In this document: positions 1 to 10,976 of the stretch, in pieces
Layout of the letters: the number at the start of each line of letters is the position of its first letter
Numbering within the stretch: the stretch's first letter is position 1
DNA from: Patescibacteria group bacterium
Lineage (GTDB): Bacteria > Patescibacteriota > Minisyncoccia > UBA6257 > GWB1-50-10
Length of the DNA stretch: 61,242 nucleotides
Reading direction: 5' to 3'
NCBI GenBank assembly: GCA_030017555.1
Contig: JASEIC010000002.1
Span: 1-61,242, forward strand
Translations under genes and position numbers: made by a program
Notes under the pieces: model-generated
Told to the model about the DNA's origin: nothing
The model's input: the letters and a program-made list of their open reading frames with translations, nothing else
Databases searched by the model: none

Positions 1-55
1 GCCGCAGGCGGCGAGGAACCCCCCGCGAATTCGGAGCGGCTTCGCCGCGAGATTT
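1..55. repeat. IR-A left arm: GC-rich perfect inverted repeat, cut by the window edge
   Basis: nt 1-55 are the exact reverse complement of nt 1097-1151. On the + strand they read ..AAGGEEPPANSERLRREI followed by TAA (55-57), which looks like the tail of an ORF entering from the left. Confidence 0.9.
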
Positions 56-114
56 AACAATTCCCAATTTTTCTTTGGCGGCAAATAAATTATGAATTTA
101 CAAAGTAAATACAA

Positions 115-1011
115 CTACGCTTTCGGAGTTTCAATATTTCCTCCTTCAATCGGGTTTACTTCCGGTTTTATTTCACCGGGCGGAATTTCGCCTTCAGGAG
201 TTTTTGGTTCTTCTTCCGGTTTCGGCTCCTCAGGCTTCTCTTCTTTTTTCTGCTCTTCTTCCAGCTTCTGCTTTTCTTCTTCTAGTTTTTTGTCCACGCG
301 CTCCGTTGCTTCCTTTGTTAAATCCTCATCAAACTTTTTCAAAAGTTCCGGTAAGGCTTCAAGAATTTTTGGGAGTAACTTAATTCCTTCTTTGAAAGCT
401 TTTGCCAAAGATTGCGCCATTTCCGGCTCAAGAGAGCCCATTGATTTACTTTCAACGTTGCGTCCTTCGGAAGTTTTCCCATTTTTGAAAATGCTTTCAA
501 AATCGCGAGGATTAAGTCCCTCAAACTCTTTGAACACTTCGTCAATTTTTTCTTGCAGAATTTTTTCTTTCTCCTCGCGAATGAGTCGCTCTTTTTCCTG
601 TTGGCCGATGAGTTCCTCTTTCTGTTTTTCCAAGCCCTCTTGCTCGGCTTGTAATTTTTCTAATTTATCTTTTTCTGAAAATACACTTGGTGGGTCTTCT
701 TCCGTTGGTGGCAAGCCTAGTTTTTCTCTCGCGGCATTTAGAGCGGATTTTGTGCCTTCAATAGATTCTGACAAACGAGTCATCTCTTCTTGTTTGGCTT
801 TAGCTTCGCCTTCCAGATTTTTTAGTTGGTCTTCTGGCGACAACTCCGGTTGTTCTGTTTGTTGTTCTTGCCCTTCTTCCGCTTTTAACTTTTCTAATTC
901 TTCCGGCGTGAGTTCACCCTCTAGTTTTTTTCCAGTATTAACATCTGCCTGTGCTTCGACAGGATTTATTTCGGGACTATTTAAATTTGGTGCACTTTCA
1001 AATTTTGGCAT
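115..1011 (-). CDS. hypothetical acidic Glu/Lys/Pro-rich protein, predicted coiled coil
   Basis: 298-aa ORF with an ATG start. The sequence is strongly E/K/P-biased low complexity with KLEE/EEK runs and no catalytic motif. It lies exactly between the IR-A arms. Confidence 0.6.
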   Translation of the reverse strand: MPKFESAPNLNSPEINPVEAQADVNTGKKLEGELTPEELEKLKAEEGQEQQTEQPELSPEDQLKNLEGEAKAKQEEMTRLSESIEGTKSALNAAREKLGLPPTEEDPPSVFSEKDKLEKLQAEQEGLEKQKEELIGQQEKERLIREEKEKILQEKIDEVFKEFEGLNPRDFESIFKNGKTSEGRNVESKSMGSLEPEMAQSLAKAFKEGIKLLPKILEALPELLKKFDEDLTKEATERVDKKLEEEKQKLEEEQKKEEKPEEPKPEEEPKTPEGEIPPGEIKPEVNPIEGGNIETPKA

Positions 1012-1096
1012 GAGATTGATTAAAAATTTCTCTTTTCTTTTTTCTCCTAAAACATGGTTCGAGCCGATTGTTTTTCCGGGCTCTTTGGCGGTTTTG

Positions 1097-1151
1097 AAAT
1101 CTCGCGGCGAAGCCGCTCCGAATTCGCGGGGGGTTCCTCGCCGCCTGCGGC
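1097..1151. repeat. IR-A right arm
   Basis: Exact reverse complement of nt 1-55 (55/55). Confidence 0.9.
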
Positions 1152-1184
1152 GGCGAAATGCGTTCGGACTAATTCAAGAATACT

Positions 1185-1280
1185 GCACCATTGAGGAAAT
1201 TGCAAGTTTTGAAGATTCGCCTCGCTTCGCTCGGCGGCCAGTTGGTATTGGATTTTCGGGGCAAAAACGAATTGGCGATT
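1185..1280. repeat. IR-B left arm: inverted copy of the recombinase 3' end
   Basis: The reverse complement aligns with 2692-2787. The outer 30 nt (cttcaaaacttgcaatttcctcaatggtgc) are identical, the outer 52 nt match 49/52, and the inner part is more diverged. Confidence 0.85.
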
Positions 1281-1326
1281 TTGAAAAAAGAAAAGAAAAA
1301 TTTTTAATCCCTAATCAAGCAACACT

Positions 1327-2796
1327 ATGAAATACATACTCTACGCAAGGAAAAGTACAGAAGAAGATGACCGCCAAGTCTTGAGCATTGAAGCGCAACT
1401 CGTAGAGTTGCAAGAGTATGCCGCCAAAGAAAAATTGGAAATTGTTGCCTCGCTCTGCGAGGCCAAAACCGCCAAAGAGCCCGGCCGAATGAAATTCGCC
1501 GAAATGTTGTCATTGATTGAAAAAGGAAAGGCAGACGGGATTATATCGTGGCATCCAGACAGGTTAGCAAGAAATTCCGTTGATGGTGGTAAAATAATTC
1601 ACTTCGTTGATCGCGGCTTGATTAAGTCCCTTAAATTTCCCACTTTTTGGTTTGAACCAACGCCACAAGGATTGTTTATGCTGAACATTGCTTTTGGACA
1701 AAGCAAATACTTTGTGGACAATTTGCGAGAGAATGTAAAACGAGGATTGAGGCAGAAAATCAGAAATGGCGTTTGGCCCGGCTGGGCTCCAGTGGGCTAT
1801 CTCAATAATCCAAAAACTCGCTTAATTGATATTGACCGAGCGAAAGCACAGAAAGTGAAAAAGCTTTTTGAGTTTTATTCTACTGGTAGATATACTCTTA
1901 AATCTCTCGCAAATTGGTCTAAAGAAAAAGATTTGTATGGCAATCTCGGAAAAGAAATCGCCGTCAGCAATGTTCAGAAAATCTTGAATAATCCTTTTTA
2001 TATCGGCTTAATGAAATACAGAGGGGAAATTTTTGAGGGACAGCACGAGCCGTTAATTTCAAAGAAACTTTTTGATAAATGCCGAGAGGTGATGAGCAAG
2101 CGAGGAAAAGTCCAAGAAGTCAGAAAATATAATTTTGCTTTTCTTGGCTTAATGAAATGTGCTTCTTGCGGCTGTTCAATAACTGCTGAAATCCAAAAAG
2201 GGCATAATTATTATCGTTGCACCAAAAAGAAAGGGGCCTGCCAAGAAAAGCATTATTTGCGAGAAGAAGTTTTAAATGAGCAGATTAAATCTTTTCTTCA
2301 AAAAGTTTCTTTGACGAGCCAAGACACCGAAAAAGTTTTGGCGGCGTTGGATAATGAACAAGAACAGGCAAAGCAACAGGCAAGGTCAAAAGTGGAAATT
2401 TTGAAAGAGCAGTTAAAACAAGTAGAGATAAAATTAGGAAAACTGCTTGATGTGTTTTTGACTGACGCTTTATCCACAGAAGAATACGCCGCCAAAAAAC
2501 AAGAATTGTTGTCGCAAAAAATGGAGCTTCAGGAAAAAATCACCGACTTTGAGCAAAAAGGGTTATCTTGGCTCGAACCGGCTCGTGAGTTCGTAAAATC
2601 CTTGAATCAAGCCGCAAAACTGATTGATGAGAATAATCTTTCCGAATTGCCAACATTTCTGAAAAACATCGGCTCGAACCATATTTTACGAAATCGCCAA
2701 CTGATTTTTTCGCCCAAAATCCCTTACAATTTAATCGCCGAGCGAGACGAGGCGAACCTTCAAAACTTGCAATTTCCTCAATGGTGCGCCGGGTAG
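1327..2796 (+). CDS. large serine recombinase (resolvase-type catalytic domain, recombinase domain, zinc ribbon, coiled coil)
   Basis: The N-terminus YARKSTEEDDRQVLSIEAQ..DGIISWHPDRLARN matches the serine-recombinase catalytic core. It has the Cys cluster CASCGCS..YYRCTKKKGAC and a Q/E/K-rich coiled coil, and is 489 aa. The stop codon lies inside tRNA-Tyr. Confidence 0.9.
   Translation: MKYILYARKSTEEDDRQVLSIEAQLVELQEYAAKEKLEIVASLCEAKTAKEPGRMKFAEMLSLIEKGKADGIISWHPDRLARNSVDGGKIIHFVDRGLIKSLKFPTFWFEPTPQGLFMLNIAFGQSKYFVDNLRENVKRGLRQKIRNGVWPGWAPVGYLNNPKTRLIDIDRAKAQKVKKLFEFYSTGRYTLKSLANWSKEKDLYGNLGKEIAVSNVQKILNNPFYIGLMKYRGEIFEGQHEPLISKKLFDKCREVMSKRGKVQEVRKYNFAFLGLMKCASCGCSITAEIQKGHNYYRCTKKKGACQEKHYLREEVLNEQIKSFLQKVSLTSQDTEKVLAALDNEQEQAKQQARSKVEILKEQLKQVEIKLGKLLDVFLTDALSTEEYAAKKQELLSQKMELQEKITDFEQKGLSWLEPAREFVKSLNQAAKLIDENNLSELPTFLKNIGSNHILRNRQLIFSPKIPYNLIAERDEANLQNLQFPQWCAG
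2692..2787. repeat. IR-B right arm: last 32 codons of the recombinase gene plus the first 6 nt of the tRNA-Tyr 3' end
   Basis: Inverted match to 1185-1280. Homology ends at ..tggtgc, which is 6 nt into the tRNA (GCACCA). Confidence 0.85.
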
Positions 2797-2868
2797 GATT
2801 CGAACCTACGTAGCCCGATGGGCGCTAGATTTACAGTCTAGTGCAATTGACCACTCTGCCACCGACGC
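2782..2868 (-). tRNA. tRNA-Tyr (GUA), CCA encoded
   Basis: Cloverleaf read by hand. The acceptor is GCGTCGG/CCGGCGC, the anticodon loop is CTGTAAA, there is a long variable arm, the T-arm is GTAGG-TTCGAAT-CCTAC, and the terminus is ACCA. Confidence 0.9.
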
Positions 2869-2871
2869 ATT

Positions 2872-3246
2872 CTAATCAACTTTATACTTCTGATATTTTA
2901 CATGCTCAATTGTCAATTCGTTTCGGCAGTCCACTTTCCCCCAAGGAATTAAATATTTTTCCCCGCGTTCAGTATAAACAAATAATTTATTAAATGCATC
3001 ATCACTATATTTTCTTGAATAATTGTAAGATTGATTTCCTCCCGTAATGCGAAGTCCTGCTTTACATTTATTGTTTTTATAAAGCCCCGCAAATTTAACT
3101 TGCACCCGTTCCAATTTACCGTTTCTTTCTACAATAAAATCATAATGCCTCTTATCGCCTATTGGCAAACAAACTTCGTAACCGTTATTCAAGTAATAAC
3201 TGATCGCTTGACCGATTGCTATATTACCTCGAATTTTTGTATTCAT
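2872..3246 (-). CDS. small PD-(D/E)XK-type endonuclease-like protein
   Basis: 124 aa. The pattern GxxAIxYYLxxGYEVxLPxGDxxxYDFIVE..RVQVK resembles the compact PD-(D/E)XK nuclease fold family. This is motif-level recognition only. Confidence 0.55.
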   Translation of the reverse strand: MNTKIRGNIAIGQAISYYLNNGYEVCLPIGDKRHYDFIVERNGKLERVQVKFAGLYKNNKCKAGLRITGGNQSYNYSRKYSDDAFNKLFVYTERGEKYLIPWGKVDCRNELTIEHVKYQKYKVD

Positions 3247-7593: not shown

Positions 7594-7617
7594 CGCCTGC
7601 CTGCCGACAGGCAGGCG
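7594..7617. repeat. GC-rich 10-bp-stem hairpin abutting the minisatellite
   Basis: cgcctgcctg-ccga-caggcaggcg. The left arm is an inverted partial copy of the 20-bp repeat unit. Confidence 0.85.
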
Positions 7618-7677
7618 GCAGGCAGGGCAGGCAGGCGGCAGGCAGGGCAGGCAGGCGGCAGGCAGGGCAGGCAGGCG
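7611..7677. repeat. 20-bp GC-rich tandem repeat, 3.35 copies
   Basis: gcaggcggcaggcagggcag occurs at 7611, 7631 and 7651, plus a partial gcaggcg. All copies are identical. Confidence 0.95.
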
Positions 7678-8804: not shown

Positions 8805-10976
8805 TCAACCTTCCAATTTTAGAGATAAAACAGTTGAAACGCCGTCATCACCCATTGTCACGCCATATAAAATATCAGCCACATTCATTGTTACCCGGTT
8901 ATGGGTCACAATTACAAACTGGCTTTTTTTTGAAAATTCTTTGATTAACTCGGCAAATCTTCGCGCATTATCATCGTCCAGTGCCGCATCAATTTCATCA
9001 AGCACTAAAAACGGCGGCGGACTTACGGAAATTAAAGCAAAAAGAGCGGCCAATGACACCAAGCTTTTTTCGCCGCCGGATAGCATATCCAAACTGGTTA
9101 TTCTTTTTTTCGGCAAATTAAGCTCTATATCAATGCCGGCCGTTAATTCCGGATCGCTTTGATTTTCCGGAATATTTTTTTCTTCTTTTGTTTCTCCTTC
9201 CGTTATTTCTCCCACTCCTTCTTCAAGAATTGGCCGAACCTCGCGAACAACAAGTTTCATTCTTGCCCGACCACCGCCAAACATCAAACGAAAATACTCA
9301 TTAAAAGCATCGTTAATAGATTTAAAAGCGCTTTTGAAATCATTATGAATACGCTCGCCTAAATCAGCAATAAGATGCTTTAAATCAGAAGCGGCTTTTT
9401 CCAAATCTTCCAATTCCCGGCTCAAAAACTCATGACGGCTTTCGCTTTCATTTGCTTCCTTAATAAGGTTTTCATCGATTTCGCCGATAGCCGCCAATTC
9501 TCCGCGTAGCCGCATTATTTTTCTTTCGGTTTCGGGGACATTAATTTCGCCCTGAAAAACAGGGATATTCGCCAATTCTTCTTTGGCACGGCCAAATGTC
9601 TGCCACTCTCGCTCAATTTCCTCAATTCTAAGCTGAAATTTTTCCTGTTCAAAACGCGCATTTTGTATTTCGCTGTCAAATTTACGAAGTTCATTCTTTT
9701 TTTGTTCTAAATTCTCAATTTGAGAACGAAACGCTTGATTAATTTCTTGCTGCTTTGCTGCCAATTCTTCTTCTTTTATTCTAATTTCTTTAAATTCCCG
9801 ATCTAACAACTCTAATTCTTCTTTTAATTTTATTGCTTCCTCTCCCAAATTATGATCGGGTTCTATGTCCTTTTTCTCCAAAATTCGATCTAAACGTTTA
9901 AGCCAATTTTCTATTCTTGCTTTCAGCTCGCCTAAATCTTCCAATTTGAGCATTAAATTCATATCCATACTAAGTTCAGTTACGAGTGATAAAAACTCTT
10001 GTACATTTAAAGAAGGTGTTTTTGTTTCACTGGATTTAATTTCCATTCTGGCTTCAACTCGCGCCAAAGACCGCTCAAAAGAAGACCGCTTCTCAACTAT
10101 CAAATCTGCCTTATCTCTTAAAATTTTTGTTTCTTCGTTGGTTGAAATTTTCGATTCAATTCCTTTCAAATCCTTTTCCAAAATGCCGATTTCTTCTTCG
10201 GTTCGCTTTCTCTTTGAAATCAAATCGTTAAGCGGCCTATTTAACGCCGAAAAAGCGCGTTTCAAATCCTGATGTCTTGAAGAAAAATAATTATTTTCTA
10301 ATTCTATAAGCGTCTGCTCAATTTCCTTTCTTTTATCCCAACGATGCTTCTGCTTGCGTAAAAACCTGAGATGAGGCACAAGCTCATTAAGTTGCACCCT
10401 TACTTTCTCCATATTTATTTCACTTGATTCAAGTCTCCTTTCGGCTTGAGCTTTTTTTAATCTGAACTCTCTCAAACCTAAAATTTCTTCCACCATCGCC
10501 CGTCGATTTTCAGCAGAAGATATTACAAAAATATCGCTCTCACCCTGACCAATCATGGTTAAGCCCCGACTGCCGAGTTTTGCTCGCGCTAAAACAGGAA
10601 TTAAATCTTTCTGTTTTACTTCAATATCATGCCAAAAAAATTGAGATGTTCCAGAACGATCAGCTCGACGAACAAGCATTACTTCTTCAGCATCAAAAGG
10701 AAATAAGCGCGAACAATTATCAAAATAAAGCGCAACTTTAGCGAAACCAACGGCGGGCTTTTTCGGCGTACCGGCAAAAATTAAACTACCCAAATTATCA
10801 CCGCGAAGATGTTTGGCTTCTCTTTCGCCTAAAATCCATCGAAACGCATCAACAATATTGGATTTTCCCGAACCATTGGGGCCGACAATGCCTACGACCC
10901 GACCGGGAAATTCTAAGACGGTTTTTTGCGCAAACGATTTAAATCCCTGTAATTCCAAACGTTTTAGAAAATTCAT
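8805..10976 (-). CDS. smc: SMC-family chromosome partition ATPase, short hinge-less form
   Basis: SMC-type N-terminal head (FKSFA..IVGPNGSGKSNIVDAFRWILGE) and C-terminal head (LSGGEKSL..FLVLDEIDAALD..VTHN). Only coiled-coil-like sequence lies between them. 723 aa. Confidence 0.85.
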   Translation of the reverse strand: MNFLKRLELQGFKSFAQKTVLEFPGRVVGIVGPNGSGKSNIVDAFRWILGEREAKHLRGDNLGSLIFAGTPKKPAVGFAKVALYFDNCSRLFPFDAEEVMLVRRADRSGTSQFFWHDIEVKQKDLIPVLARAKLGSRGLTMIGQGESDIFVISSAENRRAMVEEILGLREFRLKKAQAERRLESSEINMEKVRVQLNELVPHLRFLRKQKHRWDKRKEIEQTLIELENNYFSSRHQDLKRAFSALNRPLNDLISKRKRTEEEIGILEKDLKGIESKISTNEETKILRDKADLIVEKRSSFERSLARVEARMEIKSSETKTPSLNVQEFLSLVTELSMDMNLMLKLEDLGELKARIENWLKRLDRILEKKDIEPDHNLGEEAIKLKEELELLDREFKEIRIKEEELAAKQQEINQAFRSQIENLEQKKNELRKFDSEIQNARFEQEKFQLRIEEIEREWQTFGRAKEELANIPVFQGEINVPETERKIMRLRGELAAIGEIDENLIKEANESESRHEFLSRELEDLEKAASDLKHLIADLGERIHNDFKSAFKSINDAFNEYFRLMFGGGRARMKLVVREVRPILEEGVGEITEGETKEEKNIPENQSDPELTAGIDIELNLPKKRITSLDMLSGGEKSLVSLAALFALISVSPPPFLVLDEIDAALDDDNARRFAELIKEFSKKSQFVIVTHNRVTMNVADILYGVTMGDDGVSTVLSLKLEG

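Follow-up and report, generated by a model that had tools for sequence, protein, structure and literature searches.

Inverted arms of a serine recombinase element flank an exchangeable cargo gene in Patescibacteria

Several described systems combine a site-specific recombinase with exchangeable or invertible DNA. Large serine integrases of the phage/ICE type (A118, Bxb1, phiC31 class) consist of Resolvase, Recombinase and zinc ribbon domains and produce site-specific junctions with a short shared core. SCC elements (SCCmec and relatives) are cargo cassettes of 20-60 kb driven by large serine recombinases of the Ccr family and located at the 3' end of a conserved gene, rlmH (orfX), with tandem arrays and with recombinase-less cassettes next to recombinase-bearing ones. 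Tycheposons of Prochlorococcus are cargo-carrying integrative elements at tRNA genes that show repeated integration at one site, degenerate remnants and variable cargo; 910 of 937 tycheposons use tyrosine recombinases, a minority use a large serine recombinase, and they are flanked by partial tRNA direct repeats. In integrons, an IntI-type tyrosine recombinase gene lies next to a slot with compact, single-ORF cassettes of very diverse function, all in one orientation, served by a common Pc promoter and bordered by palindromic, hairpin-prone sequences. In Hin/Gin/Cin invertons and shufflons, a gene-sized segment bounded by inverted repeats of ~26 bp lies next to the gene of a small (~190 aa) serine invertase with a C-terminal HTH. 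In myxophage Mx8 (intP) and in SSV1 (int), attP lies inside the integrase gene, so that integration rewrites the C-terminus of the enzyme, whereas in the yeast 2-micron plasmid, two inverted repeats divide a circle into two unique segments that can isomerize.

Here we analyze a locus at the left edge of a 61,242-nt stretch of DNA from a Patescibacteria group bacterium (contig JASEIC010000002.1), hereafter the window. A preliminary description, made from the sequence alone, reported an exact 55-bp inverted repeat that is GC-rich, encloses a single acidic coiled-coil gene and lies next to a large serine recombinase (LSR) gene, and interpreted this arrangement as a candidate invertible cassette. 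The repeat proved to be real: nt 1-55 and 1097-1151 are exact reverse complements (55/55), with only two copies in the window and none in 100 shuffles. The arms are 67-75% GC in a 37% GC window, lie 1041 bp apart and enclose one credible ORF, whereas the 412-aa plus-strand ORF at 92..1330 is a low-complexity antisense shadow. The LSR gene starts at 1327, 176 bp to the right, and both arms encode the same peptide, as had been described, when read towards the cassette. The proposed interpretation, however, is only partly supported. The arms are indeed tied to the neighboring LSR, carry sequence that behaves as its element end and putative recombination site, and are, as suggested, tails of recombinase-type ORFs pointing towards each other, but the main proposal of a Hin/Gin-like invertible cassette is not supported (see below).

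The features of the locus are as follows, with lower case denoting the reverse complement of the module in upper case and the x pieces being short inverted copies of the resident LSR gene.

1..55, plus strand: distal arm A, inner 55 nt only, comprising 13 nt of a 17-nt palindrome and a 42-nt inner part; read left to right it encodes AAGGEEPPANSERLRREI, with the stop codon TAA at 55-57 on the arm edge; the outer 39 nt are predicted to lie off the window.
56..83, minus strand: x5, inverted copy of LSR gene nt 1419-1446 (codons 31-40), abutting the distal arm.
115..1011, minus strand: cargo gene for a 298-aa acidic, E/K-rich protein that matches no Pfam, NCBIfam or PHROG family; homologs at 85-86% nt identity lie in the same kind of cassette in L093, L108 and L117 (L numbers denote the related loci retrieved for comparison).
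1018..1044, minus strand: x4, inverted copy (96%) of the 27 nt upstream of the LSR start (1283-1309), located 6 nt upstream of the cargo start codon; the likely shared promoter/leader.
1045..1076, minus strand: x3, inverted copy (91%) of LSR gene nt 2661-2691.
1076..1096, minus strand: x2, inverted copy (100%) of LSR gene nt 1464-1484, abutting the proximal arm.
1097..1190, minus strand: proximal arm a, complete, with inner part 1097-1138, 17-nt palindrome CGCCGCCTGCGGCGGCG at 1139-1155 and outer 35-nt motif 1156-1190 ending in GCACCA; on the minus strand it continues the frame of x1 as ..WC-SILELVRTHFAAAGGEEPPANSERLRREI...
1185..1288, minus strand: x1, inverted copy of the last 34 codons of the LSR gene, 82% identical to its partner here and 97-100% in most relatives; together with arm a it forms one ~200-nt inverted copy of the junction between the LSR 3' end and arm A (putative attP).
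1283..1309, plus strand: X4, 27-nt element upstream of the LSR start.
1327..2796, plus strand: LSR gene, 489 aa (Resolvase, Recombinase, Zn_ribbon_recom).
1447..1463, plus strand: 7+3+7 palindrome GCCTCGC-TCT-GCGAGGC inside LSR codons 41-46, exactly between the pieces copied as x5 and x2; the stem is kept by compensatory synonymous changes across relatives.
2684..2787, plus strand: X1, 3'-terminal 104 nt of the LSR gene, partner of x1; it ends in TGGTGC, the reverse complement of the 3' GCACCA of the tRNA, and is the right end of the element.
2782..2868, minus strand: tRNA-Tyr (GTA), whose 3' end overlaps the LSR stop region by 15 nt; the host side of the right junction.

Two corrections to the preliminary description follow from this map. 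First, the repeat is cut by the window edge, exactly 55 nt from the inner end of the left arm. The homolog of the right arm in relatives runs on to 1190, and the 29-nt outer motif occurs only once in the window, at 1154-1182; the outer 39 nt of the left copy therefore lie off the window, with TGGTGCAGTATTCTTGAATTAGTCCGAACGCATTTCGCC, itself preceded by unrelated host DNA, predicted immediately before nt 1. The default largest k of common assemblers is 55, which fits a contig ending at the first fully repeated k-mer, although this remains an inference. Second, this is not the only repeat: the pair 1185-1288/2684-2787 (104 nt, 82%) brackets the LSR gene, and four short inverted copies of pieces of this gene lie just inside the arms.

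The LSR belongs to a widespread family. More than 566 relatives at 67-90% aa identity were found in species-representative genomes, nearly all labelled as Patescibacteria lineages. The Pfam Resolvase domain matches residues 4-150, which include the YARKS motif, Recombinase 173-259 and the Zn ribbon 272-324, and the PHROG integrase family scores 3.6e-74, against 3.6e-19 for DNA invertase. Similarity to solved integrases is weak (E ~3e-6), with the A118 integrase C-terminal region matching residues 216-416 only. The same order, A.x5.cargo.x4.x3.x2.a.x1, then X4.LSR.X1, then tRNA, is present in 41-47 independent related loci, where the arms are 69-130 nt long and mostly 98-100% identical within a genome. 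A further 14 metagenome contigs carry the window-type arm as an inverted pair 0.7-1.06 kb apart. No identical record was found for either the cargo protein or the LSR, and none of the 44 metagenome hits is the same strain, the best cargo match being 86%.

In relatives, the right end of the element always lies at a tRNA 3' end. The LSR 3' end abuts the 3' end of more than a dozen kinds of tRNA genes, including Tyr, Leu, Ile, Arg, Asn, Ala, Met, Lys, Phe and Gln. The left arm starts with (TG)GTGC next to unrelated host DNA, often a terminator hairpin or a tRNA 5' end. The same hexamer ends X1 at the tRNA and co-varies with the tRNA end, with TGGTGG at tRNA-Ala and GCTCCG at tRNA-Asn. In the window, only the right junction (2782-2796) is present. 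The segment a+x1 is contiguous and equals the reverse complement of X1+A. A CGAAC motif lies 17-21 nt after TGG on the tRNA side and 22-26 nt after TGG in A; in work on the A118 integrase, a 5-bp offset reportedly distinguishes attB from attP half-sites. The attP candidate itself shows only weak dyad symmetry, with at most ~9 of 26 positions matching against about 6.5 expected by chance, which is not informative.

Read in the LSR frame, arm A is open and codon-like. The frame from X1 through A stays open for a median of 37 codons, and SILELVRTHF is kept through Ser AGT<->TCT, Leu CTT<->TTA/TTG and all four Thr codons. The stop codon lies within 3 nt of the inner end of the arm in 26 of 41 loci, although the arm lengths range from 79 to 127 nt, and it is at the arm edge in the window as well.

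The cargo differs in nearly every genome. The 37 slots examined hold methyltransferases, an SDR, a radical SAM enzyme, an FAD oxidoreductase, an AHSA1-like protein, an NAD(P)HX dehydratase, an HTH protein, membrane or secreted proteins, and others, with only one related pair, although the LSRs are 67-90% identical. Variant forms of the element were detected as well, which points to modular recombination: empty arm palindromes beside the LSR (L053, L025); the LSR unit alone (L034, and L070 between two tRNA 3' ends); two-cassette arrays (L042, and L112, which has no LSR and lies at the syntenic rpsB-tsf-tRNA-Tyr locus); LSR-less cargo units of the form A.x5.c.x4.X1 followed by a tRNA gene (L092, L121, L123, L105); and one apparent LSR-flipped isomer (see below).

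Comparison with the described systems shows both similarities and differences. Like the phage/ICE-type integrases, the LSR has the same domain set, a site-specific junction with a short shared core and a possible 5-bp offset of a shared motif between the element and host arms. However, the element is only ~2.8 kb here (from the predicted left end to the tRNA junction) and carries a single cargo gene, its putative attP lies inside the 3' end of the integrase gene and is present twice in inverted orientation, and the targets are the 3' ends of many different tRNAs rather than one gene. With SCC elements, it shares LSR-driven cargo at the 3' end of a conserved gene, tandem arrays and recombinase-less cassettes, and CcrB is the best NCBIfam match of the LSR. 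However, CcrB scores only 101.8 bits against a cut-off of 900 and CcrA 73.8 against 700, so this LSR is not a Ccr; moreover, the target is tRNA and not rlmH, the cassettes are ~1 kb with one gene, and the ~95-nt inverted arms with LSR-gene-derived flanks have no known SCC counterpart. Like tycheposons, the element carries variable cargo at tRNA genes and shows repeated integration at one site and degenerate remnants. Unlike tycheposons, the locus is defined by inverted repeats built from the 3' end of the integrase gene itself, only ~6 nt of the tRNA end is repeated directly at the far end of the standard element, and the host clade is different. As in integrons, the slot adjacent to the recombinase gene holds compact single ORFs of diverse function in one orientation, with hairpin-prone borders and short arrays, but the recombinase is a serine enzyme, each cassette has its own copy of the recombinase upstream element, there is usually one cassette (two in L042 and L112), and the platform itself is mobile and tRNA-targeted. 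As in Mx8 and SSV1, integration would rewrite the integrase C-terminus, and as in the 2-micron plasmid, two inverted repeats would divide a circle into two unique segments that could isomerize. However, those systems use tyrosine recombinases, none is known to combine a split-gene attP with a second inverted copy and a cargo slot, and isomerization here is at most rare. Literature searches on Patescibacteria or CPR bacteria and serine recombinases found no relevant description, and this element is apparently undescribed.

The explanation we favor, as somewhat more likely than not, is that the two arms are copies of module A, the stretch that follows the last codons of the recombinase gene when the ends of a small LSR-driven integrative element are joined. 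In this view, the joined element would be a circle with two ~200-nt inverted repeats, each consisting of the last ~34 LSR codons (X1) plus A, that separate two unique segments, the LSR gene and a slot holding one cargo gene. Integration at the 3' end of a tRNA gene would open the circle at TGGTGC, in the middle of one repeat copy (attP = X1|A), leaving A at the left end next to host DNA and X1 at the right end fused to the GCACCA of the tRNA, whereas the other copy (a+x1) would stay intact between cargo and LSR, producing the two inverted-repeat pairs seen in the window. Module A would also complete the LSR reading frame: the joined form would encode a 516-aa protein with a conserved ~30-aa tail, which is cut to 489 aa in the integrated form. 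The cargo gene sits tightly between x4 and x5 and is replaced from genome to genome, and because the cargo unit can exist without the LSR, it is probably a module mobilized in trans. The anatomy of the element and its conservation, the junction sequences, the turnover of the cargo, the single cassette polarity and the variant forms are shown by the sequence comparisons, whereas the circular intermediate, excision, the attP assignment, the crossover position, the function of the tail and the way in which cargo is exchanged are inferred. No circle junction or empty site was found among the 126 loci retrieved, and in the window the left element end is missing. A database search with X1 plus the tail yielded only short ORFs of 60-157 aa and no full-length LSR carrying the tail, although this search was insensitive as it collected only 64 candidates. 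About half of the lineages, but not that of the window, have an ATG exactly at the x4|X1 junction, so that the tail might belong to a separate small protein rather than to a long LSR isoform. Furthermore, the model explains neither why x2, x3 and x5, copies of internal pieces of the LSR gene, flank the cargo nor how they stay matched to the resident LSR gene, and with x1 and X1 only 82% identical, the copy in the window may be partly decayed or mosaic.

A less likely but possible alternative is integron-like capture, whereby the arms are the two halves of a palindromic attachment site next to the LSR gene that was split by LSR-mediated insertion of a circular single-gene cassette. The cassette's own site would be X5-palindrome-X2, the same site that sits inside the LSR gene at codons 31-53, and cassettes would come and go on their own. 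Consistent with this possibility, unoccupied arm palindromes exist in L053 and L025, where the outer arm motif is joined to its own reverse complement; arrays exist; one ORF fills each slot tightly and the cargo is extremely diverse; and X5 (28 nt), the 17-nt hairpin, which is under structural selection, and X2 (21 nt) together have the size of an LSR att site. In addition, L078 shows arm A fused directly to X2 and LSR codons 40-487, the product expected from recombination between the arm site and the in-gene site. However, the arms are perfect inverted repeats through their centers, which is not the simple product of a conservative crossover at an asymmetric core. The 17-nt central palindrome is not universal, being replaced by another hairpin in L007 and L026, and was rejected as a universal crossover site. 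No identical cassette was seen in two different contexts, the cassette flanks co-vary with the resident LSR gene rather than travelling with the cargo, and this model does not explain the open, codon-like frame through the arm or the stop at its inner edge.

The inversion switch put forward in the preliminary description, whereby the LSR or homologous recombination across the arms would flip the 1041-bp segment and change expression of the cargo or of neighboring genes, appears very unlikely. Near-perfect homogenization of the arms within each genome is what frequent exchange between inverted repeats would give, and a homolog of the acidic cargo of the window lies in the opposite orientation in L093; however, that copy is a truncated, rearranged remnant sharing a 26-nt piece of one arm and not a clean flip. 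The other repeat pair (x1/X1) has one apparent flipped isomer, in two records that carry the same cassette, L114 and L120, where the LSR reads through X1 into the arm as a 539-aa ORF, but the L114 contig starts inside the repeat, so its path could be the assembler's choice. The cassette has the same polarity in 47 of 47 related loci that hold both cassette and recombinase. The cargo ORF is complete inside the segment and carries its own copy of the LSR upstream element, so that flipping would not uncouple it from that element, the enzyme is a 489-aa integrase-type LSR rather than a small invertase, and the repeats are ~95 nt rather than ~26 bp long. Of the outcome that had been named beforehand as refuting a switch, half was observed: all related genomes show one orientation, but in relatives the left arm is not the 3' end of an intact paralog but the left terminus of the element next to host DNA.

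It appears equally unlikely that the region left of the LSR is functionless debris, the decaying remnant of a second, inverted LSR copy into which an unrelated gene was inserted. All pieces flanking the cargo (x1-x5) are copies of LSR gene segments, degraded variants are common (L078, L045, L085, L020, L046), and x1 has diverged from X1 in the window. However, the same piece boundaries recur in more than 40 genomes from many phylum-level lineages, the cargo differs in almost every genome at exactly the same slot, and identity is near 100% within genomes but 72-94% between genomes, which independent decay would not give. An assembly artifact, a chimeric snap-back at the contig end suggested by the left arm touching the window edge and by its length equaling a common assembler k-mer size, is effectively refuted because the same inverted arms flanking a gene next to the same LSR occur inside long contigs from more than 60 independent assemblies made with different assemblers.

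Patescibacteria have tiny genomes and few of their mobile elements have been described, so how they acquire accessory genes is poorly understood. The element occurs in hundreds of species-level lineages, its recombinases are 67-90% identical across phylum-level groups, and almost every copy carries a different gene, which makes it a candidate major route of gene flow in this radiation. It would also be a natural example of devices that engineers build by hand with serine integrases, namely, a recombinase that targets a near-universal sequence (tRNA 3' ends), cargo flanked by inverted attP sites and, possibly, a recombinase whose own tail changes on integration. A more far-reaching and doubtful possibility, which the data do not rule out, is that these are a new family of modular mobile elements in which one LSR runs a gene-capture and gene-delivery platform. 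Under this hypothesis, cargo units of ~1 kb, each with one gene, a copy of the recombinase promoter and an attP made from the 3' end of the recombinase gene, would fuse with, separate from and integrate alongside the recombinase module at the 3' ends of most tRNA genes, leaving the cargo flanked by two inverted attP copies, the layout used for recombinase-mediated cassette exchange. The rewriting of the C-terminal tail could then give a built-in control of direction without a separate directionality factor, and the hairpin site inside the recombinase gene (codons 41-46) would act as a second recombination or regulatory site.

RNA and terminator roles of the arms received no support. Rfam searches at gathering and at permissive thresholds gave only the three tRNAs and chance-level hits around the arms, folding of either strand of the arm region gave z-scores of -0.3 and -1.2, providing no evidence for a structured RNA, and the arm is not a tRNA or tRNA fragment by ARAGORN. 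A consensus scan found no terminator in the arms, and promoter or terminator counts were not above those in shuffles. In the viral collections searched, the arm is absent from viral contigs and only two distant N-terminal matches to the LSR were found. Both the cargo unit (A...a) and the LSR unit (x1...X1) are bounded by ~100-nt inverted repeats, as an IS or MITE is by its terminal inverted repeats; no target duplication beyond the shared hexamer was seen, several genomes hold 2-3 diverged copies, and there is no DDE or HUH transposase. In L092 and L123, the readthrough after X1 repeats the tRNA-Leu antisense peptide AGEDL, which suggests, from the translation only, a partial tRNA 3' copy at these loci.

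In the notation used here, capital letters denote sequence pieces in the orientation of the gene for the large serine recombinase (LSR), lower case letters denote their reverse complements, and L-numbers designate individual related loci. The inverted repeat reported in the preliminary description was confirmed: nucleotides 1-55 and 1097-1151 of the window are exact reverse complements of each other, and this sequence is present in two copies in the window, but in none of 100 shuffled sequences. The arms have a GC content of 67-75%, compared to 37% for the window, lie 1041 bp apart, and enclose a single credible ORF (115..1011, minus strand) that encodes an acidic protein of 298 aa. This cargo protein showed no match to any family in Pfam, NCBIfam or PHROGs. 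A 489-aa protein containing the Resolvase, Recombinase and Zn_ribbon_recom domains starts at position 1327.

Self-comparison of the locus revealed additional repeats, such that the whole region to the left of the LSR is a mosaic of inverted copies of LSR-gene pieces. Within the LSR gene itself, X5 and X2 are separated by a 17-nt palindrome, GCCTCGC-TCT-GCGAGGC (1447-1463), and tRNA-Tyr (2782-2868, minus strand) overlaps the LSR stop region by 15 nt.

Inverted copies of LSR-gene pieces in the window (piece, position, sequence copied, identity)
x5, 56-83, copy of 1419-1446, part of an 83% match
x4, 1018-1044, copy of 1283-1309 (27 nt upstream of the LSR start), 96%
x3, 1045-1076, copy of 2661-2691, 91%
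x2, 1076-1096, copy of 1464-1484, 100%
x1, 1185-1288, copy of 2684-2787 (last 34 codons), 82%

The x1/X1 pair (104 nt) brackets the recombinase gene itself. In most relatives, the two members of this pair are 97-100% identical, whereas the left copy in the window is closer to that of the related locus L026 (94%) than to its own partner, suggesting that the element in the window is mosaic or partly decayed.

The architecture of this locus is conserved and widespread. A scan of one genome per species identified more than 566 relatives of the LSR, with 67-90% aa identity, nearly all of them in Patescibacteria MAGs from many phylum-level lineages, with 2-3 copies in some genomes. In the loci with enough upstream sequence, the order of the pieces is the same as in the window: A. 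x5. [gene]. x4. x3. x2. a. x1 | X4. LSR. X1 | tRNA. The arms are 69-130 nt long and the spacers are 0.58-2.1 kb. The repeat pairs are mostly 98-100% identical within a genome, but only 72-94% identical between genomes, and the copies inside the cassette match the resident LSR gene better than they match the LSR genes of other genomes (for x4, 2.1 against 15 mismatches). The tRNA at the 3' end of the LSR gene differs from locus to locus and includes Tyr, several Leu, Ile, Arg, Asn, Ala, Met, Lys, Phe, Gln and others.

Comparison with these loci shows that the 55-nt length of the repeat results from truncation. In the relatives, the arm begins with (TG)GTGCAGTATTCTTGAATTAGTCCGAAC.. next to unrelated host DNA and runs to the x5 junction. 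The right arm in the window contains this outer part at 1152-1190, ending in GCACCA, but the 29-nt outer motif occurs only once in the window. Therefore, the left arm is cut by the window edge, exactly 55 nt from its inner boundary. A contig that stops at the first fully repeated 55-mer is what an assembly graph with k=55 gives, although this explanation of the contig end, including the value of k, is inferred. The repeat itself is not an artefact because it lies inside long contigs in more than 60 independent assemblies.

The interpretation of this region as an invertible cassette is not supported on present evidence. Among the loci that hold both the cassette and the LSR, 47 have x5 at the distal arm and x2 at the proximal arm, and none is flipped. 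In the genome set, no locus has the cassette pieces downstream of the LSR. Furthermore, the start of the cargo gene lies a few nucleotides from its own copy of x4, so that flipping would not separate the gene from that element. The one inverted homolog of the cargo protein of the window, in L093 (294-1360; 299 aa, 86% nt identity), is a truncated remnant that lies in the opposite orientation, tail-to-tail with a second cassette, the two being joined through X5, 26 nt of one arm, and x5.

The junction sequences suggest what the arms are. The proximal a+x1 is contiguous and equals the reverse complement of X1+A. The second copy is split, with X1 located at the right end, fused to the GCACCA of the tRNA, and A located at the left end, starting with the same hexamer. 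This hexamer co-varies with the tRNA end, being TGGTGG with tRNA-Ala and GCTCCG with tRNA-Asn. The simplest reading is that of a circle with two ~200-nt inverted repeats that was opened, by LSR recombination with a tRNA 3' end, in the middle of one repeat copy. The anatomy of the element, its conservation, the junction sequences, the single polarity of the cassette, and the turnover of the cargo described below come directly from sequence comparison, whereas the circular form, its opening by the LSR, the position of the crossover, the function of the sequence encoded by the arm, and the mode of cargo exchange are inferred. This reading leaves unexplained why copies of internal LSR pieces (x2, x3 and x5) frame the cargo, how these copies are kept matched to the resident gene, and how cargo is exchanged so precisely between x4 and x5. 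A CGAAC motif lies 5 nt further from TGG in A than in the T-loop region of the tRNA, which is reportedly the offset between attP and attB half-sites of the A118 integrase; dyad symmetry is weak. One formal relation may be relevant: the composite equals a tandem pair, [A x5 c x4 X1][A X2 X3 X4 LSR X1], with the stretch between the two x4 copies inverted, which, by inference, would link the composite to the free-standing cargo units seen in L092-type loci (see below).

The arm is codon-like. From the W-C codons of the LSR, the reading frame stays open through A for a median of 37 codons. The first ten residues, SILELVRTHF, are kept through Ser AGT<->TCT, Leu CTT<->TTA/TTG and all four Thr codons, and the entropy by codon position is 6.6, 5.4 and 8.8. 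In the distal-arm reading, the stop codon falls within 3 nt of the inner end of the arm in 26 of 41 loci, although arm lengths range from 79 to 127 nt; in the window, the stop is TAA at 55-57. In this view, the repeated unit would represent the last ~65 codons of a longer LSR gene that exists when X1 is joined to A. This gene would encode 516 aa in the window, and integration would cut it to 489 aa. However, a protein search found only short ORFs with this tail, and a separate small protein is possible because, in about half of the lineages, an ATG is located exactly at the x4|X1 junction. This ATG, found in L006, L007, L010, L053, L072 and about a dozen other loci, lies ~45 nt upstream of the recombinase start, on the minus strand, and opens a 60-130-aa ORF (MRNRQFVF...WCSILELVRTHF...) made of the recombinase C-terminus plus the arm. 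It is absent from the lineage of the window. Public annotations list these ORFs as hypothetical proteins.

The 37 cargo slots hold unrelated genes, which encode five methyltransferases, an SDR, a radical SAM enzyme, an FAD oxidoreductase, an AHSA1-like protein, an NAD(P)HX dehydratase, a DUF218 protein, an HTH protein, a bPH_2 protein and many membrane or secreted proteins; only one pair is related. The GC content of the cargo often departs from that of the host contig. Several variants of the standard arrangement point to a modular organization.

Variant arrangements of the element and the related loci in which they were found
Empty arm palindrome beside the LSR: L053, L025
LSR unit alone: L034; L070, where the unit appears to lie between two convergent tRNA 3' ends
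Two-cassette array: L042
LSR-less two-cassette array at the syntenic rpsB-tsf-tRNA-Tyr locus: L112
LSR-less cargo unit A.x5.c.x4.X1 followed by a tRNA gene: L092, L121, L123, L105
Arm fused directly to X2 and LSR codons 40-487: L078
LSR segment apparently inverted between x1 and X1, so that a 539-aa ORF reads through the arm: L114, L120 (two records, same cassette)

In L070 (about 9870-9945), the left inverted repeat of the recombinase unit abuts the CCA end of a plus-strand, tRNA-like sequence identified by visual inspection. L112 (1794-3990) comes from a related host with the same rpsB-tsf-tRNA-Tyr neighborhood, where the tRNA-Tyr end carries two cassettes (PQ-loop-like membrane proteins) but no recombinase, and only a 25-nt remnant of X1 is left. 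In the LSR-less cargo units of L092 and L123, the readthrough after X1 contains, in translation, the tRNA-Leu antisense peptide motif AGEDL twice, about 150 nt apart, before the full tRNA-Leu, which suggests a partial copy of the tRNA-Leu 3' end and repeated integrations at one site. In L078, a GC-rich stretch with a tRNA-like 3' end (GGAGTCGAACC) at 9750-9900, just left of the truncated element, gave no ARAGORN call and may be an interrupted or intron-containing tRNA. In the alternative isomer (L114, 1-2760, and L120), the recombinase segment is inverted relative to the cassette, and the 539-aa ORF reads through X1, the arm, X2 and X3; because the L114 contig starts inside the repeat, this isomer may be real or may reflect a path choice of the assembler.

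The 7+3+7 palindrome inside the LSR gene (1447-1463, codons 41-46) has a 6-7 bp stem in almost all of the 87 genes compared. The stem is kept by compensatory synonymous changes (GCTTCCT/AGGAAGC, GCCTCGC/GCGAGGC, GCCTCTT/AAGAGGC), with Ala GCT/GCC paired with Glu GAA/GAG, and Ser TCC/TCT paired with Gln CAG/CAA. This hairpin lies exactly between the pieces copied as x5 and x2 and is a candidate second recombination site or a regulatory hairpin.

The enzyme is an integrase-type LSR, and its only solved relative is the A118 integrase (E ~3e-6); CcrB and XisF match far below their cut-offs. In behavior, the nearest systems are SCC/Ccr cassettes, tycheposons and integrons, whereas integrases of the Mx8/SSV1 type, with attP inside their own gene, are the nearest parallel for the position of the putative attP. 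A split inverted copy of the recombinase's own 3' end around a single-gene slot is not known from any of these systems, and searches of the literature collection found no description of such an element in Patescibacteria. The feature is real and appears to be an LSR integrative element that is distinguished by this unusual architecture.

Two other features of the window lie outside the element. A GC-rich (up to 80%) tandem repeat at 7608-7677, consisting of 3.5 copies of the 20-nt unit CAGGCAGGCGGCAGGCAGGG, is located in an AT-rich intergenic stretch and is unrelated in sequence to the arms. Immediately on the other side of tRNA-Tyr from the recombinase is a gene of the PD-(D/E)XK endonuclease family (2872-3246, minus strand; PF11645, phrog_5018), which could be part of another small island at the same tRNA.
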